Virus record (IMG/VR): IMGVR_UViG_2718217859_000009
Strand: one strand, 5' to 3'
DNA from: a virus
Taxonomy: Duplodnaviria > Heunggongvirae > Uroviricota > Caudoviricetes
DNA length: 37,279 nucleotides
Made by a program: the position numbers and the translations under genes. Below are positions 935 through 36,135 of this stretch, one piece after another (position 1 is the stretch's first letter; each line of letters begins with the position of its first letter). Below the pieces are notes generated by a model. That model was not told where the DNA came from. It saw only the letters and a list, made by a program, of their open reading frames with translations, and did no database searches.

Positions 935-2620
935 GTGAATATAAACGTCGCCGAATTGTTAAATGGGAATTACATTCTGTTATTATTTGTGGTCCTCGCG
1001 CTTGGGCTATGTCTCGGAAAGTTACGACTTGGTTCGATCCAACTGGGTAATTCCATTGGCGTTTTAGTCGTATCGCTGTTATTAGGCCAACAACATTTCA
1101 GCATTAACACCGATGCGCTTAATCTTGGCTTTATGCTGTTTATTTTCTGCGTCGGGGTCGAAGCCGGACCGAACTTTTTTTCCATTTTTTTTCGCGATGG
1201 GAAAAATTACCTAATGTTAGCACTGGTGATGGTTGGCAGTGCGCTGGTGATCGCCTTAGGGTTAGGTAAGCTGTTTGGCTGGGATATTGGCCTGACGGCC
1301 GGTATGTTAGCAGGCTCTATGACGTCGACACCGGTTCTGGTCGGTGCTGGCGATACACTGCGTCATTCCGGCATGGAAAGCAGGCAGCTCTCACTGGCAC
1401 TGGATAATCTGAGCCTCGGGTATGCCTTAACCTATTTAATCGGTCTGGTGAGTTTGATTGTTGGTGCGCGTTACTTGCCGAAATTGCAGCATCAGGACTT
1501 ACAGACCAGCGCCCAGCAAATCGCCCGCGAACGTGGCCTGGACACTGATGCCAACCGTAAGGTTTATTTACCGGTGATCCGCGCCTATCGCGTCGGCCCG
1601 GAACTGGTGGCCTGGACCGACGGCAAAAATCTGCGTGAACTGGGTATTTATCGACAAACCGGCTGCTACATTGAACGTATTCGACGTAACGGGATTCTGG
1701 CAAATCCAGACGGTGATGCCGTGCTACAAATGGGCGATGAAATAGCGTTGGTAGGCTATCCCGACGCCCATGCCCGACTCGATCCCAGCTTCCGTAACGG
1801 TAAAGAAGTTTTCGATCGTGACCTTCTCGACATGCGTATCGTCACTGAAGAAGTGGTCGTTAAAAACCATAACGCTGTAGGTAAACGTCTCGCACAACTG
1901 AAGTTGACCGATCACGGTTGCTTCCTTAACCGCGTCATTCGTAGCCAGATTGAGATGCCGATAGATGACAACGTCGTGCTTAACAAAGGTGACGTTTTAC
2001 AAGTCAGCGGCGATGCCCGCCGCGTAAAAACCATCGCCGATCGCATCGGCTTTATCTCGATTCACAGCCAGGTCACTGACCTGCTGGCATTCTGCGCCTT
2101 CTTTGTTATTGGGCTGATGATCGGGATGATCACCTTCCAGTTCAGCACATTCAGTTTCGGCATGGGGAACGCTGCCGGGTTGTTATTCGCCGGAATTATG
2201 CTGGGCTTTATGCGTGCTAACCACCCGACCTTCGGTTACATTCCGCAGGGTGCATTAAGCATGGTGAAAGAGTTCGGCTTGATGGTGTTTATGGCAGGCG
2301 TTGGTCTGAGCGCCGGTAGCGGTATTAATAACGGCCTGGGCGCGATTGGCGGTCAGATGTTGATTGCCGGATTGATTGTCAGTCTGGTGCCCGTGGTTAT
2401 CTGTTTCTTGTTCGGTGCTTATGTATTGCGAATGAACCGCGCGCTGTTGTTCGGCGCAATGATGGGCGCACGTACCTGCGCGCCGGCAATGGAGATCATC
2501 AGTGATACAGCTCGCAGTAACATCCCGGCGCTGGGCTATGCGGGCACCTATGCAATCGCCAACGTCCTGCTGACGCTGGCAGGGACAATCATCGTCATGG
2601 TATGGCCAGGATTAGGATAA
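935..2620 (+). CDS. ybjL: putative transporter YbjL (AAE family, two membrane halves with central TrkA-C-like domains)
   Basis: 561-aa ORF with GTG start ([20 protein letters not shown]...), hydrophobic N- and C-terminal halves; recognised as E. coli YbjL. Confidence 0.88.
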
Positions 2621-2732
2621 AACTGAAGTTGCCCTGAAAATGAAATTTTTTTGCACAACCGCAGAACTTTTCCGCAGGGCATCAGTCTTAATTAGTGCCA
2701 CTGCTTTTCTTTGATGTCCCCATTTTGTGGAG

Positions 2733-2776
2733 CCCATCAACCCCGCCATTTCGGTTCAAGGTTGATGGGTTTTTTG
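2733..2776 (+). terminator. rho-independent terminator downstream of ybjL
   Basis: stem cccatcaacc ... ggttgatggg followed by tttttt (2770-2775). Confidence 0.5.
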
Positions 2777-2855
2777 TTGCCTGAAATTTAAGATGTTTAA
2801 AATCATGATGTTAGAAGCACTGTTTTTTAACGATGGCGACAAAATGGCGGCAGCG

Positions 2856-3074
2856 TCAAAGAGAGAGCGCCACCTGTCCTGATTTCATTGGATGCGGCTG
2901 AACTGGATTAGACTCTTTTGGTGTTGCAATCGAACGAACAAAAGTTTCATGGGTAACAAAAGTATGGCTGCAGTTAATGTTCTGGCACTGGTTATAACGC
3001 TCTTTGGTCAATGAAGATACCTGAAAACTGCTGCGAGTATGGGCGGCACTTCCACACAGTGGGCAAATCATCAT
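2856..3074 (-). CDS. ogr: Ogr/Delta-family zinc-finger late transcription activator (equivalent to 186 B)
   Basis: MMICPLCGSAAHTRSS...YNQCQNINCSHTF: C-x2-C...C-x4-C zinc-finger pattern typical of P2 Ogr; the tabulated ORF has an N-terminal extension, true start probably at MMICPLCG. Confidence 0.8.
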   Translation of the reverse strand: MMICPLCGSAAHTRSSFQVSSLTKERYNQCQNINCSHTFVTHETFVRSIATPKESNPVQPHPMKSGQVALSL

Positions 3075-3164
3075 TTTTCGAGTTCTCCCCATTTTTGCTA
3101 AATTCACAACAATGATACCGTATTATTCCATTTTGCAAACTTAAAAGTTCTCCATTGCGAAGAA

Positions 3165-4265
3165 TCATTCCATTTCGAAATCATCAATCCTCACTTCAAG
3201 CTCCAGACTGGTCGTAAAACCGTTATCCGGGCTGACGGTATGTGTCAGAGTCGTAATGGTCCATTCCGCATCATCTATCGGCTGTTTAAAACCACTGACC
3301 TTCACAGGCATTTCCGTGTAGAGATCTGCCCGCCCTTCCGCCAGTTGTAGCGAGAATGACGCAACGCCACGTTGCAGGCGTTCCCACTGCATTTTCGCTG
3401 CCCGTTCAGCGTTGCTCCGGTTGGCATAAGTGCGATTAAGTACCAGCACGTTTTCATCCGTCCCCACCAGGTAATCGCCCTGCTTCGCTTCCGGCTCTTT
3501 CTTCTGCTTCTTAGTCCTGCGCTTACGCTTCACCGTAGTGCTTTCTTTCTTCGCGGGTTCGCGGGTATGCAACCAGCTGGCAATTACCCCCGTGTAAGCT
3601 CCGCGATCTGCCAGGGTAAAGCGGTGACTGTCGCCGTCCTTACGTGTGATAGTAATCACCGGCAGTGGTTTACCGCTGGCGCTTTTGCCCTGTCCCTGCC
3701 GGATGAATAACAGATTGCCATTTTTCACCGATGCAATGGCACCGTACTGGCGCGCCAGCCGCATCAAAAAACTGCCGTCACTCTCATTAGTCTGGTCTAT
3801 ATGCTCCACGGGCTTATCCGACAGGTCTTTACCCAGTGCCATCTTCAGCTTGTGACGTACGGCTATTTCCTTCACCACTTCCCCGACAGTGGTCTTGTGC
3901 CACGATTTTTCGCGGCGGGTATTTAGTGTTTCACGAAAATCAGCACTTCGCGCCCGGATAGTCAGGCGGTCCGGTGCGCCAGTGTGTTCAATCTCGTCCA
4001 CCGTGAATGCCCCTTTCGGGAAAAGCGGCTGCCCCTTCCAGCCCAGCGCCAGAGTAATGACCGCACCACGGCGCGGCAGCACGATTTTTCCATCGGCGTC
4101 GTCCAGCTCCAGATCAAGCTGGTCCGCTTCAAATCCCCGGTTATCCGTCAGCGTCAGCCCCATCAGGCGGTTGTCCAACACAGTGGTGATATCCCTGCCT
4201 TCAATACTGATGCTGAATGCCGGAGTTTTGTTGCCTTTGTTAAGCAGTTCAGAGCTGAAATTCAC
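3165..4265 (-). CDS. tail protein gpD (late control D family)
   Basis: 366 aa, position downstream of U and T; resembles P2 gpD; 4-nt overlap with U. Confidence 0.85.
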   Translation of the reverse strand: MNFSSELLNKGNKTPAFSISIEGRDITTVLDNRLMGLTLTDNRGFEADQLDLELDDADGKIVLPRRGAVITLALGWKGQPLFPKGAFTVDEIEHTGAPDRLTIRARSADFRETLNTRREKSWHKTTVGEVVKEIAVRHKLKMALGKDLSDKPVEHIDQTNESDGSFLMRLARQYGAIASVKNGNLLFIRQGQGKSASGKPLPVITITRKDGDSHRFTLADRGAYTGVIASWLHTREPAKKESTTVKRKRRTKKQKKEPEAKQGDYLVGTDENVLVLNRTYANRSNAERAAKMQWERLQRGVASFSLQLAEGRADLYTEMPVKVSGFKQPIDDAEWTITTLTHTVSPDNGFTTSLELEVRIDDFEME

Positions 4266-4747: not shown

Positions 4748-7700
4748 GCGTCGTATCCCCCCTGATCGCTGTAGTTACTCCTGGCTTTTGCCTTCAGCCT
4801 GCGTTCACGTTCATCAAGCTGGCGGGCCACCTCCCGCGCAATATCCTGCGCACTTTGTCCTGGCTGCGTCTGAATGATGATCTGCGTCGGTGCCTCAATC
4901 CGTTGAACGGGCGGCACAGCAGCTGCGCGACTCACCATCGCTTCACCGCCTTTCGCGGGAAGCGCCAAAGGATGCAACGGTGGAAGCTCTACTGGCGCGG
5001 CAGCAACGCCCATCATTCCGGCAACAACGGCAGCCAGTGCAGCTGTATTTCTCCGGCTGGTCACATTTGCCGGGCCGTTAACAATTTCCGGCCCGTTTTC
5101 ACCGACGATGCCAAACTGCCCGCGCGGGATATACCCGCCGCTGTCATACATCCCCGCAAAGCCATATCCCCATGACGGAAAACCACCTGATGGCATCATC
5201 ACTTTGCCGTCTGCATTCACTGTTGCGGGTTGCTGACGCGTCACGCTTTCCGGCAGTTTCGCCTTTGCAGCCTCTTTACTGATAATGCCGAGTTTCTCCA
5301 GCAACCAGGAAACGCCGGATTTCAGGGAGTCCAGCGGATGCATGACCATATTCAGCCCTTCCGCCAGTGCCTCCCCGAATCGTCGCCCCATTGCCGCTGC
5401 GCTCTGCAGTTCGGCAGAGGTCGACTTAACGGGCGTCAGCAGATCAGTAAACCAGCCCCACAGCGCCTGTACTTTGTCGCCAATCCACTGGAACACGGGC
5501 TTAAGCGGTTCGAATGCTGCACTGACGGGACCTGCCGCCGCTTTGAATCCTTCCACCACGCCACCAAGAAATGCGGTGATGGGTTGCCAGTATTTCCAGA
5601 CAACCAGCGCCACGCCCGCCAGTGCAGTAACCACAAGACCTATCGGACTGAGCAGAGCACCTAACAGACCAGATACGGCATACAGGGCAATGCGCAGCAT
5701 CGCCAGTGGACCAGATGCCAGTACTCGCAGCACCGTGCCTGCGGCGGCCAGTCCACCGCGCAGTACCGCCAGAGGATTCATAAACATCACAGCAACAGCA
5801 CGTAAACCGGATAATCCAGACCGCAAAAGTGCAACCGGCGCACCTGCTACAGTTTTCAGGACATTTCCCGTCAGTGATGCCGTGCGGCGCAAAGACGACA
5901 ACGGCGCAGTAAGTAAACCTGCGGCGTTGCCCGATGAAGCAAGCCCGCGTCGCAGCAGTGCCAGTGGTGCGCCAGCCAGCCAGGACAACGCGCTGCTGGT
6001 TCGAGTTACTGCTGCCGTAACGGAAGGTAACGTTTTGATACCCAGCACAGAGAATCCCAGACGGATCACTGCCAGCGGCCCCAGAACTGCAGCCAGCGCC
6101 ACCGCTAAGGTGCCGAGGCCTACGGTAACCGCAGCCACAACAGCCGCTACTTTCATCAGTGTGCCTGTCAGTTCCGGGTTAGCTTCCACCCAGCGACGCA
6201 ACGCCCCCGTGACGCTTTTCACCGTGTACAGAATATCCATCAGCGGCTGGCGCAGCGTTTCGCCCAGGCTGCTGAAAGTGTTCTGTGCTCCGGTTTTGAC
6301 CAGCAACCACTGAGCAGAAAGTGAGTCTTTGTTGATGTCGGATTCTTTCTGCATGGAGCCGAGCGCATCATTGCCCGCAGTCAGTTTTAGCTGGCGCTGA
6401 AGTTCCGGCAGGTTGTTTGCCAGTTTCGCCGCGTCATCGCCAAACTCTTTACCAAACAACATGGTCATGGCAGACAGACGCTTGTCCTGCGGCAGTGCGT
6501 TCACCTTCTCCAGCACACGCTGGATAGTTCCCATCGCATCCTTCGTCATCTGCTTTTCAATCACTTCAGGATTGAGTTTCAGCAGATTCATCCCTTCAAA
6601 GAAACTCTTGCTTTGCATGGTGGCAATGGATAATTCACGCACCATCGCGTTTGCTGCACTGGCTGCAACCTCCGGCGCAGCGCCCAGTGTCAGAAAGGTG
6701 GAACCCAGTGCCGCCGCTTTACGATAATCCAGACGGTCAGCCACACCGCCCAGACGTTGCATGACATCAATGATGTCTGCCCCTTTCGACATGGCGTTAT
6801 CATCCAGATAGTTCAGTGCATCGCCGAGCTGTTCAATATTGCGGGTAGGTATTTTGTAGAGCTGGGCGATTTTCCCCAGACTTTCTGACAGTTCATCCGC
6901 TGGCAGCTCAAAGGCTGTTGCCGCCTTTGCTGCCGTGCTGGCGAAGGCCAGCAGGTCACGTTTCTGGTCTTCCCAGCTGTCGTCAGGATTTGCGACGTTC
7001 ATGCGCGCACCACCTTCAACCAGTGCGGCAAAGTCCACAGCACCGTTTTCCATCGGCAACTGTTCGCTGGCACCCTTGATGGCATCCTGCATTTCGTAAA
7101 AACGCGCGGTGCGGTTGCCATTATCGTCACGCAGACCATTGACCTGCTTTGCCACACCTTTCATGGCATCTTCCATGCTGGTATAGCTTTTTACTGCCGC
7201 CATCACTGGTGCGCCCATTGCCAGCCCTGCAGCCGTGGTGGTGGCTCCGGCTCCTGCGATGCGATCGCGCACTTCAAGCCGTCTTGAGTATTGTTCTCTG
7301 GCAGCGTTCATCCGTGCCTGTTGTTCACCCAGACGTTTAAGTGCTTTTTGCTGGCCCTCCAGTGCCTGCCTTGTTTCTTCAGCATTTTTCTTAAGTTCTC
7401 GCTGGGCACTACTGAGTTGTCTGGTATCAATCCCTGATTCTTTAAGTGCCTGACGTTGTCTCTGGACCGCCCCCAACAAGCCGTTATAGGTCTGCTGAAG
7501 TTCCTGTACTCGTGTTTTGGCCTGACTGAATAACTTTGCCTGCGCGGCGGTTGGCCTGTTAGTGGCAGCAAATTGTGTGGCGAGTTTTGCCGCCTCTTCG
7601 CGGGCTGCGTTCAGGTTGTTGGCTGTTATAGCTAGTTGCGAGCGCGTCTTGCGAAATTCATCAATTCTGCCAGCCTGCTTATTCAGTTCTTTGAGGCTGT

Positions 7701-8304: not shown

Positions 8305-8819
8305 TCAGAGGCCGAGGGCGTTGCGGTGCGCTTCCATCAGGTCCACACCGTCCACAATTTCCACCATGTTGATAAGGTCCACTTCATAGAGCACCTCACC
8401 ATTGATAGTCAGCTTCGCGTAGCTGTTGGTACTGGTCACTTTAGTGGTGTTGCTTTCGCCCGTCTTCCACTCGCCGGAATCCACTTCTTTGTGACGTCCA
8501 CGCACCACAAGCTCCACGGCCTGCACTTCCCCGGTATCATCACGCTGGATAGAGCCGGTAAAGCGCAACTGGATGCCATCCACCGTGGCTTTGCCCATCT
8601 GCTTAAACAGCAGCAGCTCAGTACCACCAATGGAAAATTCTGTGTCCAGAGCACTGTCATCAAGCCCCAGATCCACATCCACCGCCCCGGCATTCCGCCG
8701 CCGCGATACTTCTCATATTTGCGGGTGAATTTCGGCAGCGTCAGCGACTCAACGATCCCCTGCCAGTTGTTCCCGTCGTTAAACAGGTTCAGGTGTTTTA
8801 ATTTGCGTGGTAAAGCCAT
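8305..8819 (-). pseudogene. tail tube protein gpFII, split by a 1-nt frameshift
   Basis: N-terminal part MALPRKLKHLNLFNDG...YRGGGMPG is in one frame (ORF 8436..8819) and the rest (A)VDVDLGLDDSALDTEF...HRNALGL is in another (ORF 8305..8682); the join lies at a C4 run at plus 8684..8687; adding one nt restores about 171 codons. Confidence 0.75.
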
Positions 8820-8828
8820 GTTGTCCCC

Positions 8829-10001
8829 TTACGCGCTGACCTGGCTGGAGAAATTCACCAGGTACTGATCGGTGATGCGCTGACGCAGCATCAGGTTTTC
8901 AAGTGGCGGCACTGGCGTGTAGTCGTAGTCGATGGTGAGCTTCCCGGCTTTCAGAGTATCTTTGTCGTTCACCGACTCATCCAGCCAGCAATCACCACCA
9001 ATGAGATAGCCCTGACTGACCAGGCTGCGCATTTTGGCGCGGATACCTTCGATAATGTCGCGGGCCAACGACGGGTTCAGCGGTTTGTCCACCGCCCACA
9101 TATGCGCTTCTGCCATTGTGTCCATAAGTACTTGCGCCGTGCGGGTGTAGTTTTCGAAGGCAAAGAGCGGGTCATCACTCAGGCAGCGGGAACCCCAGAA
9201 GCGGAAACCGTCTTTGCGGATAAGGGTGGTGACGTCGTTCTGGTTCAGCAGTCCCGCATCTGTTGCCGTGTCCTGCAGATCCCAGAACACATCAGCAGAA
9301 ATTCCGGTGACACCGTTCACGCCCACGTTGGACAGGCTTTTGTGCCACCCGGTCTGCTCATCAATTTTGGCACGCAGACCAAGTGCACGGGCGGTGGCAT
9401 ATGCCGTTGCTTCGGCATTCAGCACCGTGTCCCAGCCAGTAAAGTCGGGCCAGATCAGCATTCCTTCGCGCTGGCTGAAGTTTTCACGGTAAGTGATCGC
9501 CTCCTGTACCGTCTTGCAGCCATACGCTGACAGGTAAGCAAACCCACGCAGGCTTTGCGCCACGCTCAGCAACTCAGTCGCAACGGCTTTGTTATCGTGA
9601 CCTGGCACGCCGAGAATGCGCGGTTTAACGCCGAGCTGTGACTGGGCAGATAACAGAGCTTTCATGCCTGTTTTTTTACCTTCAGCAGTCACTGCGCCGA
9701 TGATATTGGTCGTGGTTTCTTCTTCCGTTTCACCCTGCGGCACACGCACAACAACGGTCACGGGTTTTGCCTGGTCAGCGATGGCATCCAGCGAACGGGC
9801 CAGCGTGCCGGACTCACCCGCTTTACCGCTGGCAGTCAGCACATCAGTGATCAGCACAGGTTTGTTAAGAGGAAACATTTTTGCATCGGCATCATCGCCC
9901 GTGCAGACCATGCCCACGATGGCGGTGCTCACCGTGGTAATGGATCGGGTGCCTTCGTTGACTTCAACAACGCGCACCCCGTGGTGGTAATCCTGAGCCA
10001 T
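8829..10001 (-). CDS. contractile tail sheath protein gpFI
   Basis: 390 aa ([24 protein letters not shown]...); size and sequence resemble P2 FI. Confidence 0.9.
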
Positions 10002-10077
10002 AGTGGCGAACCTCCTGATTGGATTAGGCTTCGCCCTATGTTGAAGTGATTGTGCCTGACAAACAGCTAAGCGCAGT

Positions 10078-10095
10078 TGTACCGTTATTCACACA
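10078..10095. promoter_or_regulatory. Ogr-binding dyad of late promoter P_F (TGT-N12-ACA)
   Basis: tgt accgttattcac aca about 85 nt upstream of the FI start codon. Confidence 0.55.
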
Positions 10096-10143
10096 AAATG
10101 ACGGTATTTGTCTACTTGCAGGGATAATCAAAATAATGCTGAT

Positions 10144-10710
10144 TCAGGGGGATTCATTACTCTTATTTGCCGGAAATTTTCTATAAATTGTGGAAACACC
10201 CACATCAAAAATCAGTGCAATACGCTGTCTTGATTCTCCGGCCTCGAGTAAACGCCCAATCTGTGCCCACTGTTCGGTGGTCAACTTAGGACGGCGTCCA
10301 CCTACTCTGCCTTTGGCACGAGCTGCAGCCAGCCCTGCCCTGGTACGTTCAACTATCAGTTCGCGTTCCATTTCAGCCAGGGCACCCATGACATGAAAAA
10401 AGAAACGGCCCATTGGGGTACTGGTATCAATACTGTCAGTCAGGCTTCGGAAATTCACACCACGCTGGCGCAACTCCTCTATCAGCGTAACAAGATGCCG
10501 CATACTGCGCCCCAACCTGTCCAGCTTCCAGACAACCAGCGTGTCTCCTGCCGATAGTGTCCTGAGCAGCTTTTTCAGCCCCGGTCTGTCGGACTTAGTG
10601 CCACTGATTTTATCCTCAAAAATCCGCTCACATCCCGCGCAGTTCAGTGCATTACGTTGCAAATCGGTGTTCTGGTCATTTGTTGACACGCGTACATAGC
10701 CAATAAGCAT
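10144..10710 (-). CDS. serine DNA invertase (Gin/Pin/Cin/Hin family)
   Basis: MLIGYVRVSTNDQNTDLQRNAL...DRLGRSMRHL...C-terminal HTH; near-identical in pattern to Mu Gin; catalytic Ser in VRVSTNDQ. Confidence 0.92.
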   Translation of the reverse strand: MLIGYVRVSTNDQNTDLQRNALNCAGCERIFEDKISGTKSDRPGLKKLLRTLSAGDTLVVWKLDRLGRSMRHLVTLIEELRQRGVNFRSLTDSIDTSTPMGRFFFHVMGALAEMERELIVERTRAGLAAARAKGRVGGRRPKLTTEQWAQIGRLLEAGESRQRIALIFDVGVSTIYRKFPANKSNESP

Positions 10711-10765
10711 GATCATCCCCCTGAATAAAAACCGGAGATGATGCCAGTTAGCCGTTATCTCTGCA

Positions 10766-10791
10766 TTTTCATAAACGTTGGTTTGGGAGAA
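10766..10791. repeat. gix/hix-like recombination site (right boundary of invertible segment)
   Basis: ttttcataaacgttggtttgggagaa; its reverse complement shares the 14-mer TTCTCCCAAACCAA with the site at 12604. Confidence 0.7.
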
Positions 10792-11136
10792 GCGGCAAAA
10801 AGGGATGTTGGCACAGGTGCAAATCAGATCCCTGATATGAGTTCGTGGACAAAGGGAATCTCAACGGATGCAATCTGGATCAGGTTTCCAGACGGGACGA
10901 TTATCCAGATGGGGGCGGGTGGAGGTTCAAACACAGAGATTACCTTTCCCATACCGTTTCCAACACAGTGCATGATTTTTATAGCAATGCCACGTAGTTC
11001 AGCATCAACGGCTTTCATTGGCACTGTTCAGGAGGACTCATTACAGCGGTCCAGAACAGGGACACGAGTGCTGGGTTTTAGCGGCGTAACGCCAGTAACG
11101 ACAGCTGCTTTCGGCTATTTAGCGATCGGAAGATAA
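10766..11136 (+). CDS. silent alternative tail-fibre C-terminal cassette (Sv'/Hv'-like)
   Basis: Reading frame continues from the crossover motif GLGE into ...AAKRDVGTGANQIPDMSSW...GYLAIGR; would be fused to the constant part of H after inversion. Confidence 0.65.
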
Positions 11137-11139
11137 ATA

Positions 11140-11583
11140 ATGACTCAATATTACTACAGTGCGTCTGAAAACGCGTTTTTTCCCGCAGTGCTGGAAGAAC
11201 AATACAAAAAGGCTGGAACATTCCCGGATGATGCCAGGGAGATTGATGATGATGTGGCCGTTACTTTTATAGGGAATCCGCCTGATGGCAAAATTCGTAT
11301 TGCCGGGAGTGACGGGATGCCGAGGTGGGGAGATATTCCACCACCAACCCATGCAGAAATTATTGCTGAGGCTGAACGAGAAAAACAACGCCGTATTGAT
11401 GTCGCAAACGAATTCATGAATAACAAGCAGTGGCCCGGTAAAGCCGCTATTGGTCGTCTGAAAGGCGAGGAACTGGCGCAATATAATTTGTGGCTAGATT
11501 ATCTGGACGCACTGGAACTGGTTGATACCTCCAGTGCTCCAGATATTGAATGGCCTACGCCTCCGGCAGTTCAGGCCAGATGA
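11140..11583 (+). CDS. tail fibre assembly protein, alternative copy (Tfa'/U'-like)
   Basis: 147 aa; C-terminus ...LWLDYLDALELVDTSSAPDIEWPTPP matches the conserved Tfa C-terminal pattern also seen in the minus-strand copy. Confidence 0.75.
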   Translation: MTQYYYSASENAFFPAVLEEQYKKAGTFPDDAREIDDDVAVTFIGNPPDGKIRIAGSDGMPRWGDIPPPTHAEIIAEAEREKQRRIDVANEFMNNKQWPGKAAIGRLKGEELAQYNLWLDYLDALELVDTSSAPDIEWPTPPAVQAR

Positions 11584-12157
11584 CATCCGGCGCGGTGCTG
11601 GTATCTGTTGCCGTCACCGCGTCAATGTAATCCAGCGCAGCGTTAAGTCGGGCGGTTTCTGCCTGCGTCAGATTCCGTCCGGCCTGCAATTTCAGCTGAA
11701 TCAGACTAATGGAAGCCATTGCAGTATCAATCAGCGACTGGCGCTGTGCTTCTGCTGCATCTACTGCGGCGCTATGCTGTGCCCCGGTATCCGTCACCCA
11801 TTTCTCACCATCCCATTTATCATATGGCGTTAACGGGGCGATAGTGGTTGTATTTTCAGGGTAATCACCCGGAGCTGTGATTTCTTTCGATTCTCCTGTT
11901 TCGGTGCTATAGATGATTTCACCGCGATGGTCTGGCACATATTCCCATGAGTTAAAATCTGCAGAACGGCAGATTGCATAACCAGCTTTATGTGTAACTG
12001 GTGCATCTAAACAAGAACATGCCGGTATACCGACGCCAACCGCAAGATATTCAGTTGATGTGGAAATATATTCCCGCGTTTCACCATCATAATTATAAAC
12101 GGTTATGTCTCCCGCTTTTATGGCAATGAGTTCGTTATTTAATACGGCTTTATTCAT
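11555..12157 (-). CDS. tail fibre assembly protein (gpG/Tfa), expressed orientation
   Basis: 200 aa immediately downstream of H with ATGA overlap; C-terminus ...LDYIDAVTATDTSTAPDVIWPELPEA. Confidence 0.8.
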   Translation of the reverse strand: MNKAVLNNELIAIKAGDITVYNYDGETREYISTSTEYLAVGVGIPACSCLDAPVTHKAGYAICRSADFNSWEYVPDHRGEIIYSTETGESKEITAPGDYPENTTTIAPLTPYDKWDGEKWVTDTGAQHSAAVDAAEAQRQSLIDTAMASISLIQLKLQAGRNLTQAETARLNAALDYIDAVTATDTSTAPDVIWPELPEA

Positions 12158-13665
12158 CAGGCAGCCCTCACGATATAATTAAAGGCAATGTTACGAGGTC
12201 GGTTTTCGTTTGCAGTTGGAACAACTCTGGAAGCATCGAATGTTACTCGCCTTGCATAACCACCTTTAATTGAATCAGATGAAGCATCTCCGATGACGCT
12301 GGTTGTAAAAGCACCAGAATCAGAAGGATAGGAATTAAACCTGACATCCACTAATGCACCAATTATATTTCGAATGGCATCGCCCTGTGATGAAAGCAAG
12401 CTACGGTTAGTATCAATTCCTCTTCCGTCATCCCAGCCGCGAATAAACTCACCACGTAAATCAGGCAATTTATTTGTCGGGTAAACTTTTGCCAGTTCCG
12501 GGTATTCTTCAGCAGAAAAAGCCGCACCATTGCATTTCAGCCAGCCTGTTGGCGGAGTGGCTGAAGGCCACGGAACAGGGACACCAACAGGTAATGCAGA
12601 GCCTTCTCCCAAACCAAGGTATGCGAGAAGACCAGCTACATCCTTTCCACTCAAATTAGTCAGCGTATTGTCCAGCGGTTGTTTACCTGCCAGTGCATTA
12701 AGCATTGTCGTGGCAAAGTTCGGGTCATTCCCCAGCGCCGCAGCCAGTTCGTTCAGTGTATCCAGTGCAGCAGGTGCAGACCCCACCATTGCCGCAATTG
12801 CCGATTTCACAAAAGCCGTGGTGGCAATCTGTGTATTGTTAACTGACTGTGCGGCAGTGGGGGCTGTTGGCGTTCCGGTGAGTGCCGGACTTAACAGCGG
12901 CGCTTTCAGTGCCAGCGCATTGTTAATGGTGGTACTGAATTTCGGGTCATTATTAATGGCAGCGGCAATTTCTTTCAGCGTATCCAGTGTGGCTGGCGCA
13001 CCATTAATAAGGGCCATCAGTGCCGCCTGAACAAACGCGGTGGTCGCAATCTGCGTGGTGTTATTCCCCTCCGCTGGCGTTGGCGCTTTGGGTGTTCCGG
13101 TCAATGTCGGGCTTTCTTTGGGTGCATACTGTGAATGCGGGTCCGGTGCGGCAAGATGTTTTGCCATCTTATCATCCACGAACACCTTCAGCTCCAGTAC
13201 CTTGTCATCCACATACTTGCGGGTTGCCAGCACGACGGCAGGGTCGATTTTCAGGGTGATATTGTCCGTGCTGCTGGTAATCAGCACCATGCGCACGGTC
13301 TGGGTGCGCCCGCTGCCTTCAGCCAGTTGCGGCTTATAGCTTTCCGGGCAGTTGCCTACGGCAATCAATGCCCCGGACTCATCAAACAGACCCACTTCAC
13401 GTATCCACCAACCACCCTCATTTTCAGGGATCACCTGTTCAGCAATAATCTGGCTGCTGTTCTGCGGGTCGATATAGAGCATATTCAGCGCAGCCCGGCG
13501 TTTCTCATTTACCAGTGCCGTCTGCTTTGCGTCCGGCGTTGGCAATGTTCCGCCGCCATCGCCCACCGCCATATGGGTAATTTTTAGCGGCACACCGAGC
13601 GCGGCGGCGCTGGCAAGTTTCGCCGCGCCAATATCCGTCAGCAGGGTATAAAATTTTGTGCTCAT
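12157..13665 (-). CDS. tail fibre protein gpH (constant N-terminal part plus invertible C-terminal part)
   Basis: 502 aa, repeated collagen-like/T4 gp37-like motifs (NTTQIATTAFV twice), crossover site inside the coding sequence at the GLGE motif. Confidence 0.88.
   Translation of the reverse strand: MSTKFYTLLTDIGAAKLASAAALGVPLKITHMAVGDGGGTLPTPDAKQTALVNEKRRAALNMLYIDPQNSSQIIAEQVIPENEGGWWIREVGLFDESGALIAVGNCPESYKPQLAEGSGRTQTVRMVLITSSTDNITLKIDPAVVLATRKYVDDKVLELKVFVDDKMAKHLAAPDPHSQYAPKESPTLTGTPKAPTPAEGNNTTQIATTAFVQAALMALINGAPATLDTLKEIAAAINNDPKFSTTINNALALKAPLLSPALTGTPTAPTAAQSVNNTQIATTAFVKSAIAAMVGSAPAALDTLNELAAALGNDPNFATTMLNALAGKQPLDNTLTNLSGKDVAGLLAYLGLGEGSALPVGVPVPWPSATPPTGWLKCNGAAFSAEEYPELAKVYPTNKLPDLRGEFIRGWDDGRGIDTNRSLLSSQGDAIRNIIGALVDVRFNSYPSDSGAFTTSVIGDASSDSIKGGYARRVTFDASRVVPTANENRPRNIAFNYIVRAA
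12604..12629. repeat. gix/hix-like recombination site (left boundary, inside gene H)
   Basis: ttctcccaaaccaaggtatgcgagaa; inverted partner of 10766..10791. Confidence 0.7.
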
Positions 13666-14267
13666 GGATTCACTCTCATTGTGTCAATAACATGGACCGC
13701 CCCGCCTTCATGCGCGGTGCCGCCGGAAATAATTGTTTCGTTGATATACGGATAGATCGTGATTTCTTCGCCAAGATAGCTGGCGGCCCCCACCCAATGC
13801 GGACCGCTGGTCTGCAGATTGATGGACATGCCGATCATGTGACGGCTACATGGTTTGGCATCGCTTATCAGCCGCTCAAGTTCCAGATAGGTATCTTCAG
13901 TGATGCCCTGGTCCTGCACGCCGATATCCAGGCGAAACGTGCCCGGTGTTTCTCCGGTCTGCCACCACTCAATAATGCGGATCAGGAATCCGAACGGTTC
14001 CACCACCCGCCGCACGGCACTGGTAGTTCCTTTATGCTGATGAATATAAAAAGCATCCTTCACTACCTGGCGTTTGACGCTTTCTGTCCAGCCCTCGTCC
14101 CAGCGATCCACAGAGAACGCCCAGGCGAGATAAGGCAGGAAGCTGACCGGACAGGTAGCCGGATTCCACAAGTCACGCAGCGGCACCTGCAGATCAGAAA
14201 TCCCGCTACAGGTTTGCGCCAGTCGGCGCTCCAGTGAAGTTGAACCCGGTGGCAGCAGACTATTCAT
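13662..14267 (-). CDS. baseplate protein gpI
   Basis: 201 aa, position between J and H. Confidence 0.8.
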   Translation of the reverse strand: MNSLLPPGSTSLERRLAQTCSGISDLQVPLRDLWNPATCPVSFLPYLAWAFSVDRWDEGWTESVKRQVVKDAFYIHQHKGTTSAVRRVVEPFGFLIRIIEWWQTGETPGTFRLDIGVQDQGITEDTYLELERLISDAKPCSRHMIGMSINLQTSGPHWVGAASYLGEEITIYPYINETIISGGTAHEGGAVHVIDTMRVNP

Positions 14268-25653: not shown

Positions 25654-26655
25654 ATGGGTGGAGAGACTTCGGCTATACAACGAGTCGCGGGTAAGATTTC
25701 TGATGATATTTTCTCAGTGTTCAAATGGGATCGTGCCGCTAGAGCGGACATGAATTGGGATTGTTGCCAAGAGGCTCATTCCAAGAAAACACATCCAAGC
25801 GATGTTGTATTTTTCTACATAGATCCATATGAGGAGGAAATGGTCTATCTCAACACAGACCTCAAAAGCTATGCAGAAGGTACTATTGGGAAAAAAATAG
25901 TCGAGGGAGCTTTAACATCGCTTGCTTTAGCTACCGAATGTGCAAATGTCAGTGAAGAATGGCGATTGAAATATGTTCATGATGATTCTTTAGGTTATAA
26001 CGTAAGAGGGTTATTATTCTTATATAACCATGATAATTTATATGATAAAGACTTCTATGAGAATATTACAAAAAAATTAGATCACTCATCTATAAATTGC
26101 CCTCCAAACATCAAACTACATTTGCTTGACCCTTATAAAATATCAGATTTGATAAACATATCTTCTGACATAACTAAGTTAATTGGTTCAGGCAAACTTC
26201 CTCAACCTGATAAGTTCACATATTATTATCCAGATCTTTCCCTAACAAGAATAAAGCACCCTATTAATCAGACAACACCTGCAACAATTGAATTATTAAC
26301 ATCACCATACATTATAATAAAGCATGAGGCTTTCAGTTGGCTCAGGGATAAAAACCCTGAGGGATATGTTGTTTATTACAATCAACCGGGGGATTCAGTA
26401 GACGAATTCGTTTACTTCTTTGATATGTTATCAACTTATCAGATATTAACCGAAGGTAAACCAATCGTATTACGCCATTGTCACATTCACCCAAATGAAA
26501 ATGCCATTCATCATTTTGAAAGAGCGAAAAAGAAATACAGCACAGACTGGCTCTTAGGCGAGGATGAAAGACTTTTTCTTAAAATTGACTTCGACAAGAC
26601 AGACAAAATTGTTGTTGAATATAATCTTGAACAAATCGGCATGGAGCAACGATAA
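25654..26655 (+). CDS. hypothetical protein, gene 1 of AT-rich three-gene cargo operon (candidate defence system)
   Basis: 333 aa, AAGGAG ribosome-binding site, stop overlaps the start of gene 2 (TAATG); possible D...E-x-K nuclease-like motif (FFYIDPYEEEMVYLNTDLK), unverified. Confidence 0.7.
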   Translation: MGGETSAIQRVAGKISDDIFSVFKWDRAARADMNWDCCQEAHSKKTHPSDVVFFYIDPYEEEMVYLNTDLKSYAEGTIGKKIVEGALTSLALATECANVSEEWRLKYVHDDSLGYNVRGLLFLYNHDNLYDKDFYENITKKLDHSSINCPPNIKLHLLDPYKISDLINISSDITKLIGSGKLPQPDKFTYYYPDLSLTRIKHPINQTTPATIELLTSPYIIIKHEAFSWLRDKNPEGYVVYYNQPGDSVDEFVYFFDMLSTYQILTEGKPIVLRHCHIHPNENAIHHFERAKKKYSTDWLLGEDERLFLKIDFDKTDKIVVEYNLEQIGMEQR

Positions 26656-27734
26656 TGGCTAAAAAACTATATTTCGCAACTGATAAAAATATTTATGATG
26701 CATTACATCATAAAAGGATAACCGCTGCAAAGTTGCATGAATTATTGTTGAATCGAGGTGTGTTTTTATCACCAGAACTCGACAAGGAAATACTAATCGA
26801 GGAAATATCCAAACTTCCTCACGGATTTAATGAATTAGAACACATAAAAAAACTGGTCAAAACATATGACCCAAGGGAAAGCACTACTAGTGTGAGCTTC
26901 CAAACCTCAACAAATCAGGCCGAATTAAAAAGTGCTGCTGAAGCACTAAAAAAAACATGCTCCCCTAGTAAAGGTCAAAGCCTGAATATTGTAGCTAAAA
27001 AAGATGGCTCGCTTACAGTAGAATACAAATATGAAGAAATAGACCTGTCTAAAACTGCATTACGTCAGATCGACAAGCGGAATGTTATAATAGAACTTCG
27101 CCCTGGAGCTGACAAAGTTGAAGTACGTATGCCTCAAAACCCCGAGGCAAAAAAAGTTATTGAGAGCTTGCAAAACGAGCTATCTAAAATCAAGTCCGAA
27201 CCTATCGAGCGCTTCGAAATATCATTACTAGCAATAACTGATCCTACATTGCGAAGTCAGTTTTTTCAGGAATTAATGAATGGTCTACGCGGTTATGAGA
27301 CTGATGACGTAACAAAAGTCGAATTAAATCGCAGTACTGATGCTAGTGAGGATGAAGACAAGGAAGAAACTATTGATACCGGATTTGTTAAGAAAGCCGT
27401 CCTTAATGGTGAAGGGGTAAATAGTTCAGCTATATTTTCTCAACTACATGAGAAAGGTTATTATATCGGGCGTATTGCATGGTCTTCAAAGCCGACAAGT
27501 GGAATTGGAGACAGAATCAACGTCGAAGCATTTTTCAAAGACTCAGAAAAATGCTGTGACTTTGCCTATCAAATTAAAGGTATAAACAATCAAAAAGAAG
27601 ACGGTTTCAATGTAACCATTCGCGCGGCAACGGCACAAGAGAAAAAACATATTAGTGAATTAATTGAGTCCGCCGCTGAAAATGCCTATAATATAATAAT
27701 AGGATCAGAGGTGAACGAAGATGAAAAAGGTTAA
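26655..27734 (+). CDS. hypothetical protein, gene 2 of cargo operon
   Basis: 359 aa, Lys/Glu-rich, translationally coupled on both sides. Confidence 0.7.
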   Translation: MAKKLYFATDKNIYDALHHKRITAAKLHELLLNRGVFLSPELDKEILIEEISKLPHGFNELEHIKKLVKTYDPRESTTSVSFQTSTNQAELKSAAEALKKTCSPSKGQSLNIVAKKDGSLTVEYKYEEIDLSKTALRQIDKRNVIIELRPGADKVEVRMPQNPEAKKVIESLQNELSKIKSEPIERFEISLLAITDPTLRSQFFQELMNGLRGYETDDVTKVELNRSTDASEDEDKEETIDTGFVKKAVLNGEGVNSSAIFSQLHEKGYYIGRIAWSSKPTSGIGDRINVEAFFKDSEKCCDFAYQIKGINNQKEDGFNVTIRAATAQEKKHISELIESAAENAYNIIIGSEVNEDEKG

Positions 27735-28404
27735 ATGGCTTAAGTTAAACATACGGCTTGAGTTTGAAACAGCCGTTAGACGTCTTTCTCTTGATTCTTT
27801 TACAGAGGATAAAGGGAAAGGGTTCATTTTTGATAAAATACGCCATGATTTTGCAAATGGTCGCTTTGTCGAGCGTATTGTTTATCATGATAAAATATTA
27901 AGCTTTGACGGAAGCGAAACTACCGTTGAAAGAATCGAATATCGCACCACAAATTTTAGCGTGGCTTTAGACTCTCTTCCTGTAATGCAGATTACCAACC
28001 CACCCAGAACTTTAAAGCCTTTTTCGCAGGCTTTGGTAAAAAATCTTGGCTTAGGTGTTAGTTTGGAAGAAATTGACATAAACCCTATAGACTGGCTTAA
28101 TGAAATATCTTCAAGTGTAAATATCAATTTAACACAACTTGATATTTCAAGGGTTAGAGTTTCTGATTACGCCACAGCTAAAATGCAAATAATTGGCAGC
28201 AATGATCTTAGGAAGTATTATAAAGAAGAATTAGAGGGTAAAAAAATAAGAATTGACAGGCTTGTTTGCTCTGTTAATTCATTAGAATATTCCGGTAAGC
28301 TCAAGATCACCAATAGCGGCCTTGCTTATATTGATGTTAGAAATGAGAATGAGTTTACGAAAATCGTTTTTGATACGTTAAAAAAAGTCACCCTTCAATC
28401 ATAG
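27721..28404 (+). CDS. hypothetical protein, gene 3 of cargo operon
   Basis: 227 aa, start overlaps the end of gene 2 by 14 nt. Confidence 0.65.
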   Translation: MKKVKWLKLNIRLEFETAVRRLSLDSFTEDKGKGFIFDKIRHDFANGRFVERIVYHDKILSFDGSETTVERIEYRTTNFSVALDSLPVMQITNPPRTLKPFSQALVKNLGLGVSLEEIDINPIDWLNEISSSVNINLTQLDISRVRVSDYATAKMQIIGSNDLRKYYKEELEGKKIRIDRLVCSVNSLEYSGKLKITNSGLAYIDVRNENEFTKIVFDTLKKVTLQS

Positions 28405-34243: not shown

Positions 34244-35179
34244 ATGTCAACACATGAAATCACATTTCGCCATGTGGACGAAAAAAAGAAATCCTTAATC
34301 ATGCAGAATCGCGGAGGGCAATCGGTTATAGATCGGATACTGAAAGCCTATGGTTTTTCTTCCCGACAAGCATTCTGTAATCACCTAGGTATATCGCAAA
34401 GTACAATGGCGAACAGGTATGCCCGTGACACTTTCCCTGCTGATTGGGTTGTTATCTGTAGCATGGAGACTGGAGTGCCGGTCGAGTGGTTGGCATTTGG
34501 CACTGATACCGAGAAGGGAAGCATTACAAATAATGCAGAAAAAAGTCACAACAATTGTGACAGCAAGCATCAACATCTCAATAGAGAACAAGACATCCAA
34601 AATGAGAACTCTTTTACTATTAACCAAGGTGGAAAAGCAGCAATAGAGCGAATCGTTTTGGCTTATGGATTTAAGACAAGACAAGCTTTAGCTGATCATA
34701 TTGGTGTATCAAAAAGTACATTAGCCAATCGTTACATGAGAGATACCTTTCCTGCTGACTGGATTATTCAATGCTCACTGGAAACCGGTGCTTCATTAAC
34801 ATGGCTAACCACTGGTAACGGGGCAATGTTTGAAAAGCCTCGAAACGATACTATCACTATCCCATATCATAAAATAATTGATGGATCTCTTGCTCAAGAA
34901 ACCTTCTTGACTTTTGACTCTAAGTTGTTAGAAGGAACCTTTCTGCAACCTTTAGCAGTATTCATTGATGAGGAAATATATATTGTAGAATCAAAATTTA
35001 ATGAAGTTACTGATGGCAAGTGGCTTGTGAATATTGAAGGGAAAATAAGTATCAAAGATTTGACTCGCATACCCGTTGGTATGGTTAAAGTTGTAGGCAC
35101 TAACGCAAGTTTTGAATGCTTACTTACTGACATTATCGTTTTGGCAAAATGTAAAAGAGTTTTTACTAAAAATGTATAA
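34244..35179 (+). CDS. putative immunity repressor with tandemly duplicated CI-like DNA-binding domain
   Basis: Two copies of ...R(L/V)(L/V)xAYGF(S/K)(S/T)RQA(F/L)...IS(Q/K)ST(M/L)ANRYxRDTFPADW(V/I)(V/I)xCS(M/L)ETG..., then a distinct C-terminal domain; AT-rich. Confidence 0.65.
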   Translation: MSTHEITFRHVDEKKKSLIMQNRGGQSVIDRILKAYGFSSRQAFCNHLGISQSTMANRYARDTFPADWVVICSMETGVPVEWLAFGTDTEKGSITNNAEKSHNNCDSKHQHLNREQDIQNENSFTINQGGKAAIERIVLAYGFKTRQALADHIGVSKSTLANRYMRDTFPADWIIQCSLETGASLTWLTTGNGAMFEKPRNDTITIPYHKIIDGSLAQETFLTFDSKLLEGTFLQPLAVFIDEEIYIVESKFNEVTDGKWLVNIEGKISIKDLTRIPVGMVKVVGTNASFECLLTDIIVLAKCKRVFTKNV

Positions 35180-35190
35180 AGAGAAACATC

Positions 35191-36135
35191 ATGACTGAAC
35201 CAACCAATAAAGATAGCGAAATAAAAAAACACCTATTAGAATTTCTTGATTCACAGTCTGAAAATATAGCAAAACACTTCTACTCTCATATAAAAGACTT
35301 AATAGAAGCAGGAGAGCTTTCTGAAGCTCATAATAACCTAGCGCTAATTGAAAAATACATAACTAGGCCACCGATGGATGAAGAACCCAATATAAATGAA
35401 AATAAAGCCAATAAAAGAAAAAATGTAAAATCACTTGAACCTAATAATTATGTAGAACATATAATACAATTAGAAGAACGAAACAGCATATTAACTCTAC
35501 AGTTAGAGCATTATACTCAGGATCTTAATAGAAAAAACGCAATAATCGAAAACAACGTAAAACAAATTAATTCATTGATTAGTGAAAATAAGGAACTCCG
35601 TAGCCAAGTACAGCAACAAAGAATCGATGATAAAATCCCCACCTATGTTAACGATGTTAAATCAGATCTTGGTAGTGATGACAAACATTTTATATTGATG
35701 TCTATTATCTGGTCTATTGCAGGGGTATTTTTTGGCTTCCTTGCAGTAGTATCTGCTTTTTTTACATTATACATGAACTTAGATTTAAAAAATCTCACTA
35801 ACCTTCAGTTAATATATATCTTCACGCGAGGATTAGTTGGAATCGCCATTCTTTCATGGCTATCATATATCTGCCTTAGTAACTCAAAAAAGTACACACA
35901 TGAATCGATCAGGCGAAAAGATCGTCGACATGCTTTGATGTTTGGTCAAGTTTTTTTGCAGATATACGGTTCTACAGCAACTAAAGAGGATGCAATAGAA
36001 GTCTTTAAGGATTGGAATATTTCAGGTGACTCTGCATTTTCAGGTCAGACAGAGCAACCACCGAGTTTTGCGTCATTTTTGAATACAATCAAAGACAAAG
36101 TTAAAGTAACTGGAAGTGATAAAGAAACAGATTAA
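35191..36135 (+). CDS. coiled-coil membrane protein (moron between repressor and integrase)
   Basis: 314 aa; N-terminal coiled-coil region (LQLEHYTQDLNRKNAIIENNVKQINSLISENKELRSQVQQQ) then two hydrophobic helices; very AT-rich. Confidence 0.65.
   Translation: MTEPTNKDSEIKKHLLEFLDSQSENIAKHFYSHIKDLIEAGELSEAHNNLALIEKYITRPPMDEEPNINENKANKRKNVKSLEPNNYVEHIIQLEERNSILTLQLEHYTQDLNRKNAIIENNVKQINSLISENKELRSQVQQQRIDDKIPTYVNDVKSDLGSDDKHFILMSIIWSIAGVFFGFLAVVSAFFTLYMNLDLKNLTNLQLIYIFTRGLVGIAILSWLSYICLSNSKKYTHESIRRKDRRHALMFGQVFLQIYGSTATKEDAIEVFKDWNISGDSAFSGQTEQPPSFASFLNTIKDKVKVTGSDKETD

Follow-up and report, generated by a model that had tools for sequence, protein, structure and literature searches.

Switching of tail-fibre genes by inversion of a DNA segment is an already known device. 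It is found in e14, a cryptic prophage of E. coli K-12, in Mu, in P1, in Fels-2 and in other P2-like prophages. In e14 the invertible region is called the P segment, and the repeat TTGGTTTGGGAGAAGG has been shown experimentally to be its inversion site (PMC12529663). The invertase gene pinE reads away from this segment. Next to it follow a site, a leader ORF, a fibre tip and a chaperone gene. The other half of the segment is made up of a convergent chaperone gene, overlapping the first by 29 bp, a second tip and a second site.

In Mu, the constant part of the fibre gene (Sc) lies outside the 3-kb G segment, and the alternative pairs Sv/U and Sv'/U' lie inside it. The gene for the invertase, Gin, is located outside, reads away from the segment and has an enhancer in its 5' end. 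The C segment of P1 is 4.2 kb long. Its invertase gene, cin, reads towards the segment, and the site cixL overlaps the 3' end of cin.

An example from the same phage type and locus as the one reported here is the Salmonella prophage Fels-2, where inversion of the tail-fibre gene beside the pin homologue fin was inferred from the genomes of LT2 versus LT7 (PMC7953296). Coexisting orientations have been found in P2-like prophages by sequencing clonal cultures, and the four variants of a complex locus were confirmed by PCR (PMC4272514). The P2-like prophages of EPEC E2348/69 also agree in phage type and locus; like Fels-2, they are compared here by description.

The window, that is, the whole stretch of viral DNA analysed here (37,279 nucleotides), contains a module formed by a serine invertase gene and an 1838-bp segment bounded by two inverted 26-bp sites. 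That we are dealing with an invertible tail-fibre segment of the Pin/Gin/Cin type, in a P2-like prophage of E. coli, is given a probability of about 0.9. The combination holds nothing new, since invertases and inversions at the P2 Z/fun hotspot have already been published. As a discovery it is minor: the switch falls within the classic Hin/Gin/Cin/Pin family, it uses the sites of the e14 P segment, and its occurrence at the hotspot has been published and is annotated in many genomes.

The tail module of the window runs in the order V-W-J-I-H-G, cargo, FI-FII-E-T-U-D, which is the P2-like (Peduoviridae) order. Pfam recognises in it Phage_base_V, GPW_gp25, Baseplate_J, Tail_P2_I, the tail-fibre N-terminal domain, sheath, tube FII and GPD. 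The invertible module lies between the tail-fibre genes and the tail-sheath gene FI. This is the Z/fun hotspot of P2, where the original prediction had placed it: the order H, chaperone, segment, invertase, FI corresponds to H-G-fun(Z)-FI in P2. The predicted Mu G-style arrangement within a P2-type tail module also stands, with Sc outside the segment, two opposed tip/chaperone cassettes inside it, and in-frame fusion both ways.

The constant N-terminal part (Sc) of the tail-fibre protein H comprises 354 residues ending in GLGE (12604..13665, minus strand) and contains the Pfam Phage_tail_fib N-terminal domain (E 4e-65). Nearly all of it is located outside the segment, and the crossover falls in its last codons, which inversion leaves unchanged. 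Residues 181-340 of H are 81% identical to residues 253-412 of P1 S. The variable tip now expressed (Sv) forms the C-terminal 148 residues of H (12157..12603, minus strand). It belongs to Pfam Collar, matches positions 483-638 of 673 in PHROG 523 (tail collar fibre) and is 60% identical to e14 stfE. It is followed by the assembly chaperone now expressed, a 200-residue protein equivalent to P2 G (11555..12157, minus strand; Pfam Caudo_TAP, E 5e-32) and 91% identical to TfaE of e14.

The second cassette faces the first. Its ORF (10741..11136, plus strand; Pfam Gp53-like_C, E 4e-13) carries the silent alternative tip (Sv'). The ORF consists of a 13-residue leader that starts outside the segment at 10741, the GLGE codons (10780-10791) within the proximal site, and 114 residues that can be fused to H (10792-11133). 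Beginning 4 nt past its stop codon is the gene for an alternative assembly chaperone of 147 residues (11140..11583, plus strand; Pfam Caudo_TAP, E 4e-32), 50% identical to e14 TfaP. The two chaperone genes are convergent and overlap by 29 bp.

Inversion in silico keeps the reading frame, joining Sc (354 residues) to the 114-residue tip to give a 468-residue H'. The exchange, foreseen as about 150 residues for about 115, is exactly 148 versus 114, and 11140-11583 comes to lie directly downstream of H', which bears out the claim that an alternative assembly gene would be brought into register. Each tip is followed by a Caudo_TAP gene within 0-4 nt, and both fusions read through the GLGE codons. 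In one family, PHROG 2557, Sv' matches positions 417-533, and the end of the constant part of H matches the directly preceding positions 323-416. Contiguous Sc-Sv' fusions exist, as this family has both parts side by side. Because the two tips come from different families (Collar and Gp53-like_C), different specificities are plausible for them.

The DNA invertase gene (10144..10710, minus strand) encodes 188 residues. Its ORF, 10144-10716, contains the Pfam domains Resolvase (E 2e-53, residues 5-137) and HTH_7 (E 1.5e-15, residues 140-183), and it matches PHROG 125 (DNA invertase) with E 9e-101. The best match among solved structures is Mu Gin (PDB 3uj3, E 8e-93, residues 1-184). Translation is likely to start at the ATG at 10710, not at the extended ATG at 10716, because the former has better Shine-Dalgarno spacing and agrees with the RefSeq annotation of relatives. 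The product has the make-up of a serine recombinase of about 190 residues, with a catalytic serine domain and a C-terminal helix-turn-helix, and Ser9 is present within YVRVSTNDQ. Equivalents of Hin residues 47, 48 and 51 (K47, R/K48, R/K51) are conserved in invertases, and only in that subclass (PMC3798978). The window's invertase, whose numbering trails that of Hin by one, has these enhancer-contact residues of helix B as K46, K47 and R50. Judging from its domains and residues, it is a Din-family serine invertase. A Gin-like invertase outside the segment had been predicted. The gene is intact and lies 56 bp outside, but it is of the Pin/e14 type and not specifically of the Gin type: its product is 85% identical to PinE, 77% to Cin and 74% to Gin.

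The invertase ORF is framed exactly by a perfect 12-bp inverted repeat (10142-10153 and 10715-10726), which might have marked a mobile cassette. By our own estimate, about 0.5 such perfect pairs are expected by chance in the scanned region. The Shine-Dalgarno sequence lies in one arm and the context of the stop codon in the other.

The invertase-proximal recombination site (10766..10791, minus strand) has its crossover dinucleotide at 10778-10779. The distal site, inside gene H (12604..12629, plus strand), has it at 12616-12617. The invertible segment, 10779..12616, comprises the 1838 bp between the central dinucleotides, an extent that is based on inversion in silico and on inversions that the homologous segment has undergone naturally. 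Written in one sense, the two 26-mers are TTCTCCCAAACC-AA-CGTTTATGAAAA and TTCTCCCAAACC-AA-GGTATGCGAGAA. They are imperfectly dyad-symmetric, identical at 21 of 26 positions, and have the central dinucleotide AA in common. Each arm of the inverted repeat (10766-10792 and 12603-12629) spans 27 nt, and the two arms show 81% complementarity. Both sites fall on GLGE codons, as had been proposed, at residues 351-354 of H and 15-18 of the alternative ORF. In P1, whose cixR matches the sites at up to 21/26, the annotated crossover falls on the equivalent central dinucleotide.

A 14-mer had been reported as common to the two sites. The inverted match is real, although the exact common stretch is one longer, at 15 nt. 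It also exceeds what coincidence would give. The 14-mer has two exact matches in 37 kb, one on each strand; with at most two mismatches there are three matches where 0.36 are expected, and 0 of 100 shuffles reached three. The next match, at 28058-28071, was rejected as an extra site, having two mismatches and lying 15 kb off within an unrelated gene. The dyad-symmetric pattern of invertase sites, with at most three mismatches, matches these two places only (0.03 expected), a pattern written with the sites already in view and so not independent of them. Comparison with e14 serves as the independent test: the proximal site is identical to the site beside pinE at 26 of 26 positions, and the distal site agrees with the second e14 site at 23 of 26; both have the central AA. 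A third site, or a shufflon with multiple inversions as in one EPEC P2-like locus, was sought in the window and not found. Three repeats and four variants are known from that EPEC locus, whereas the window has two sites only.

A putative Fis-dependent recombinational enhancer can be placed by homology in the 5' end of the invertase gene (10621..10692, minus strand). The Hin enhancer consists of two Fis sites with a spacing of 48 bp. In the window, Fis-like 15-bp cores, assigned by the Fis consensus, lie at 10674-10688 and 10626-10640 (gene positions 23-37 and 71-85) with their centres likewise 48 bp apart; the distal core has a G/C-rich centre. In P1 cin the annotated enhancer occupies the colinear position, at gene positions 19-90, and the stretch in the window is identical to cin at 56 of 72 positions and to pinE at 63 of 72. 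It is not additionally conserved, with 78% identity to cin compared with 64-78% in the other 72-nt blocks of the gene, so that it is the colinearity and the Fis-like cores which point to an enhancer. An enhancer about 100 bp from one site has been described (PMC3798978); here, about 97 bp separate the proximal core from the centre of the nearer recombination site.

The following mechanism can be proposed. Dimers of the 188-residue serine invertase would bind the two 26-bp sites and bring them into synapsis, most likely on a Fis-bound enhancer in the 5' end of the invertase's own gene. The reaction would thus probably depend on Fis and the enhancer. The DNA would be cut at the central AA, rotated by 180 degrees and religated, leaving the 1838-bp segment flipped. 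Transcription and translation of H begin outside the segment. In the present orientation, Sc (354 residues) would carry Sv (148 residues, collar type) and be assembled with the 200-residue TfaE-like chaperone. In the other orientation, Sc would carry Sv' (114 residues, gp53-like tip) and be assembled with the 147-residue TfaP-like chaperone, which would be co-transcribed with H' after inversion. A lysogen population would then give rise to particles of two receptor specificities, with the two tips presumably differing in host range.

By alignment, the nearest named relative is Pin with the e14 P segment, rather than Gin with gix. Identity of the invertase and agreement of the sites are 85%, 26/26 and 23/26 for e14, compared with 74% and 17/26 for Mu. 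The layout of the e14 P segment is repeated in the window, as are its TfaE-like chaperone and its StfE-like tip. However, e14 is a degraded lambdoid element with truncated fibre genes, whereas the segment in the window is joined to a full-length P2-type H within a P2-like tail module that is otherwise largely intact. A further difference lies in the second cassette, whose chaperone is only 50% identical and whose tip is of another, gp53-like, type.

Mu shares with the window the constant part outside, the alternative pairs inside, and an invertase gene that lies outside, reads away and has an enhancer, putative in the window, in the 5' end. It differs in its longer segment, in the central GA of gix instead of AA, in tips that give no BLAST match to those of the window, and in its phage backbone. 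P1 shares the central AA, an annotated enhancer colinear with the putative one of the window, and the likeness of S to the constant part of H; it differs in the direction of cin, in the overlap of cixL with that gene, and in the length of its segment.

A different function for such a module is suggested by e14, where inversion creates a chimeric protein that blocks adsorption of T2 (PMC12529663). The main selected function in the lysogen could then be defence rather than host range, with the ORF from 10741 producing a free receptor-binding fragment that blocks adsorption, like StfE2 of e14. A start codon at 10741 is present with GGAG 4 nt upstream, the leader MPVSRYLCIFINVGLGE resembles that of e14 stfE, MPFACYFFIFINVGLGE, and RefSeq annotates the ORF from 10741 in relatives in both orientations. 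However, the recombination site itself dictates part of the leader, and the remainder shares its DNA with the stretch upstream of the invertase gene, so that conservation of the leader may have causes other than coding. In a scan of 9950-12700, no promoter-like match was found upstream of the ORF. Promoter-like sites in this region are at background level (4 versus 3.7 expected), and terminator-like sites are not clearly above it (6 versus 2.7 expected, sd 1.8). Defence as the main function is considered unlikely, and it is in any case compatible with a host-range function.

It is a similarly slim prospect that the module doubles as a switchable anti-phage decoy in the lysogen, besides switching the host range of virions. 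The ORF from 10741 would always read into the silent tip, and a free fragment of 131 residues, or about 165 in the other orientation, would mask the surface receptor. If so, phase-variable superinfection exclusion would be a trait of P2-like prophages, which are very common.

Against a working host-range switch it may be held that the module is a relic, intact in appearance and no longer usefully flipping in this strain, the frozen remnant of a defective prophage. In the tail-tube gene FII a deletion of 1 nt near 8685 leaves 515 nt in place of 516, and the prophage may be defective through this frameshift. If it is real, tails are not built, and the switch is without effect on virions. A relative, NZ_CM196107, has a frameshifted invertase. 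Yet the FII indel adjoins a G homopolymer and may reflect a sequencing error. Relative to homologues, nothing is truncated in the invertase, the two sites, the two tips or the two chaperones. Furthermore, the e14 segment still flips despite far heavier degradation of its prophage (PMC4272514, PMC12529663). A relic is very unlikely.

Evidence for the invertible switch is provided by relatives. Modules nearly identical to this one, and annotated as such, occur in more than 100 E. coli genomes. In the complete E. coli genomes, at a coverage of at least 80%, the native arrangement occurs in 106 records and the arrangement inverted in silico in 82. Two pairs of sibling strains differ only by the inversion. 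In NZ_CP149565 and NZ_CP149553, the flanks are identical and the middle 1905 bp are reverse-complemented. In NZ_CM125675 and NZ_CM125665, which are strain 2020N21-246 and its derivative 2020N21-246-1, the flanks are again identical and the middle 3080 bp are the exact reverse complement. The breakpoints of both pairs lie in 26-bp sites identical to those of the window, and their invertases are 99.5% and 98.4% identical to the window's. Inversion has therefore occurred in vivo in near-identical relatives, and from them it may be presumed for this strain. In these relatives, the presence of both orientations in a population, as predicted, is borne out by the sibling pairs and by the counts of records. 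Inversion by general homologous recombination at the short repeats, without the invertase, is formally possible for any inverted repeat and has nothing specific in its favour, but it is a negligible alternative: the exact repeat measures only 15 bp, and the breakpoints lie in dyad-symmetric 26-bp sites that agree with those of e14 and with P1 cix, the central AA of the annotated P1 crossover included.

For annotation, H and the ORFs downstream of it are best treated as one phase-variable unit, and a "hypothetical" or "gp53-like" ORF beside an invertase as a silent alternative fibre tip. Prophage assemblies may differ, or hold consensus errors, merely because cultures were of mixed orientation.

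For the phage backbone, the closest records are those of Klebsiella phages (96.8%). A Klebsiella host was nevertheless rejected, as the flank matches E. coli ybjM-ybjL with 99.9% identity. In strain 504239, the prophage at the same insertion site is rearranged.

The window carries an invertible tail-fibre switch within a P2-type tail module. The original prediction had described such a switch, and the recombination sites, an in-frame fibre after in-silico inversion and inversion among relatives confirm the observation and support its interpretation. The switch is real and was correctly read, but it is already known, not new, since P2-like cases have been published and hundreds of E. coli genomes carry this gene set in their RefSeq annotation. 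In EPEC E2348/69, sequencing of clonal cultures revealed coexisting orientations in two P2-like prophages (Goldberg et al., PMC4272514). One of these loci is a simple two-state switch like that of the window, while the other has three repeats and four variants, confirmed by PCR (PMC4272514). For Fels-2, inversion of a tail-fibre gene beside the pin homologue fin has been described (Zaworski et al., PMC7953296). In the proposed mechanism, a serine invertase assisted by Fis would flip the segment, exchanging the tip of the tail fibre together with its chaperone.

The tail fibre is encoded by gene H (12157-13665, minus strand; 502 aa), which has a P2-type tail-fibre N-terminal domain and a Collar domain. 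Downstream lies a chaperone gene of 200 aa (11555-12157, minus; Caudo_TAP). On the opposite strand are the silent-tip ORF (10738-11136, plus), matching a Gp53-like C-terminal tail-fibre domain, and a second chaperone gene of 147 aa (11140-11583, plus; Caudo_TAP). The convergent chaperone genes share 29 bp at their 3' ends (11555-11583), so that both C-termini, …WPTPPAVQAR and …WPELPEA, are encoded by one stretch of DNA. The e14 pair tfaP/tfaE has a 29-bp overlap too.

The invertase ORF (10144-10716, minus) contains a Resolvase catalytic domain (E 2e-53) and a resolvase helix-turn-helix. Its preferred start is the second ATG, at 10710, which is better spaced from an AGGGGGA Shine-Dalgarno sequence, is the annotated start in relatives and gives a protein of 188 aa. 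A perfect 12-bp inverted repeat, ATTCAGGGGGAT / ATCCCCCTGAAT, exactly flanks the ORF (10142-10153 and 10715-10726). Chance alone would give about 0.5 such pairs over the 3.9 kb scanned, and the repeat is probably coincidental, with the Shine-Dalgarno sequence at one end and stop-codon context at the other.

A repeat search found that the longest inverted pair within 9900-13800 has arms at 10766-10792 and 12603-12629 (27 nt, 81% complementary). Two inverted 26-bp sites thus lie where they had been predicted, the proximal one beside the invertase gene (10766-10791) and the distal one inside H (12604-12629). In the same sense the 26-mers read TTCTCCCAAACC-AA-CGTTTATGAAAA and TTCTCCCAAACC-AA-GGTATGCGAGAA. 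They agree at 21 of 26 positions, each is partly dyad-symmetric with AA at its centre, and both cover the GLGE codons, again as predicted. The 14-mer originally noticed in both has two exact copies in the 37-kb window, one per strand; at up to two mismatches it has three matches there against 0.36 expected, and none of 100 shuffles gave three. A generic dyad-symmetric pattern for invertase sites, allowing up to three mismatches, matches only these two sites (0.03 expected). Because this pattern was composed with both sites already in view, the independent test is the comparison with real sites of other elements.

In e14, the site beside pinE is identical to the proximal site at 26 of 26 positions, and the other site matches the distal one at 23 of 26. 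Experiments on e14 established that its repeat TTGGTTTGGGAGAAGG, which includes the 14-mer, delimits the 1797-bp P segment (PMC12529663). P1 cixR is identical at 21 of 26 positions and shares the central AA, the dinucleotide on which the P1 crossover is annotated. Mu gix is identical at only 17 of 26, with GA at the centre instead of AA.

The invertase shares 85% identity with e14 PinE, 77% with P1 Cin and 74% with Mu Gin. Its best match among solved structures is Gin (E 8e-93, residues 1-184). It carries the catalytic Ser9 and the basic residues K46, K47 and R50, equivalent to Hin 47, 48 and 51, which are uniquely conserved in the invertase subclass and contact the enhancer (McLean et al., PMC3798978). 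The system had been called Gin-like; a serine invertase with inverted sites is indeed present, but judged by sequence e14's Pin/P-segment system, not Gin/gix, is its nearest relative. Among the cassette products, the expressed pair resembles TfaE (chaperone, 91% identity) and stfE (tip, 60%); identity of the silent chaperone to TfaP is 50%. The invertase gene points away from the segment, an arrangement shared with Mu and e14 but not with P1. In the constant part of H, residues 181-340 (12646-13125) match residues 253-412 of S, the tail-fibre protein of P1, at 81% identity, an instance of the mosaic exchange by which unrelated phages are known to share fibre modules.

When the 1838 bp between the central dinucleotides (10779-12616) are inverted in silico, an unbroken H' of 468 aa results, in which 114 new residues replace the present 148 after the 354-aa constant part. 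The 147-aa chaperone gene then begins 4 nt downstream. The predicted exchange of about 150 for about 115 residues, with the alternative assembly gene coming into register, is thereby reproduced. PHROG family 2557 has the alternative tip (profile positions 417-533) directly after the end of the constant part (323-416), indicating that proteins with exactly such a fusion exist.

Complete E. coli genomes were searched with the native and then the inverted arrangement, counting coverage of at least 80%; the former was found in 106 records and the latter in 82. NZ_CM196107 has the window's own cassette pair in the inverted state (96% coverage). The chromosomes of strains 1504D004 and 1604D011 are equally long and carry the locus at matching coordinates. 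Between identical flanks of 2393 and 2696 nt, the central 1905 nt of one strain are the reverse complement of the other's (1889/1905). Likewise, 2020N21-246 and its derivative 2020N21-246-1 have identical flanks around 3080 nt, including an IS1203 insertion, that are exact reverse complements. In both pairs the breakpoints fall in the 15-mer common to the two sites, inside 26-bp sites identical to the window's, and the invertases are 99.5% and 98.4% identical to the window's. Since both orientations occur and some siblings differ in orientation only, the originally proposed search for both states has a positive outcome for close relatives, though not for the window's strain itself.

The 16 mismatches in the first pair all lie in the half with the alternative tip and its chaperone (1504D004 extract 2465-3350), and the second pair has none; the mismatches may stem from errors in polishing with reads of mixed orientation, or from cross-mapping to another prophage. 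Strain 503440 has two such prophages in opposite orientations, with module copies about 36 kb apart in NZ_CP025881.1 (2446452-2450345 and 2482443-2486336). Presumably, each copy's invertase could also act on the other copy.

A putative Fis-dependent enhancer lies at 10621-10692, the stretch colinear with the Cin enhancer annotated in the P1 record at cin positions 19-90. It is identical to cin at 56 of 72 positions and to pinE at 63 of 72. As it is no more conserved than the rest of the invertase gene, the enhancer is proposed by homology only. Within the stretch, TGTCAACAAATGACC and GCGCGGGATGTGAGC resemble 15-bp Fis cores, and 48 bp separate their centres; the choice of cores and this spacing follow the Hin enhancer and the Fis consensus. 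The first core is about 97 bp from the centre of the nearer recombination site, matching the distance of roughly 100 bp in Hin (PMC3798978).

A short ORF starts at 10741, outside the segment and behind GGAG, and reads into whichever tip is silent; its leader is similar to that of e14 stfE. In the window (10741-10791), e14 (4106-4156) and Mu (5526-5554), the silent-tip ORF starts just outside the segment, between site and invertase gene, so either orientation could allow translation of a truncated tip. The corresponding e14 chimera is claimed to block T2 adsorption (2025 paper, PMC12529663); by analogy the window's ORF might have a comparable defence role, which we regard as improbable.

Gene H lies among P2 tail genes, with V, W, J and I to one side and, to the other, FI (sheath), FII (tube), E, T, U and D. 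Compared with the P2 order H-G-fun(Z)-FI, the invertase and extra cassette occupy the Z/fun position, as had been proposed. The left flank (1-2880) is 99.9% identical to E. coli ybjM-ybjL and an integrase gene lies at the right end. These features argue that the window is essentially one P2-like prophage of E. coli, despite a backbone closest (96.8%) to Klebsiella phage records.

The tail-tube gene FII (8305-8819, minus) has 515 nt instead of 516. One base is lost beside a G run near 8685 (CCGGG-GCGG against CCGGGTGCAG in a relative), putting the first 45 codons out of frame with the remaining 125. Either the prophage is defective or this is a sequencing error. If it is not an error, the prophage could not make tails and the switch would have no effect on virions; even then the segment could still flip, as that of e14 does.

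The P2 old/tin hotspot, flanked by the portal gene and replication gene A, holds three co-directional genes of 333, 359 and 227 aa (25654-28404, plus). They lack Pfam matches and match PADLOC PDLC03004/5/6 ('Hp1/Hp2/Hp3') over their full length (E 1e-239, 3e-248 and 2e-157), and the second of them matches GapS4b weakly, below threshold. The trio is probably candidate anti-phage defence cargo. Between the genes for the CI-type repressor and the integrase, an ORF of 314 aa (35191-36135, plus) without a match in Pfam or NCBIfam may represent cargo of the third P2 hotspot that the literature mentions. The repressor ORF itself (34244-35179, plus) is, at 311 aa, unusually long for the P2/186 type. 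Two stretches of it match the Phage_CI_repr helix-turn-helix domain, and its length may reflect a duplication or a start called too early.
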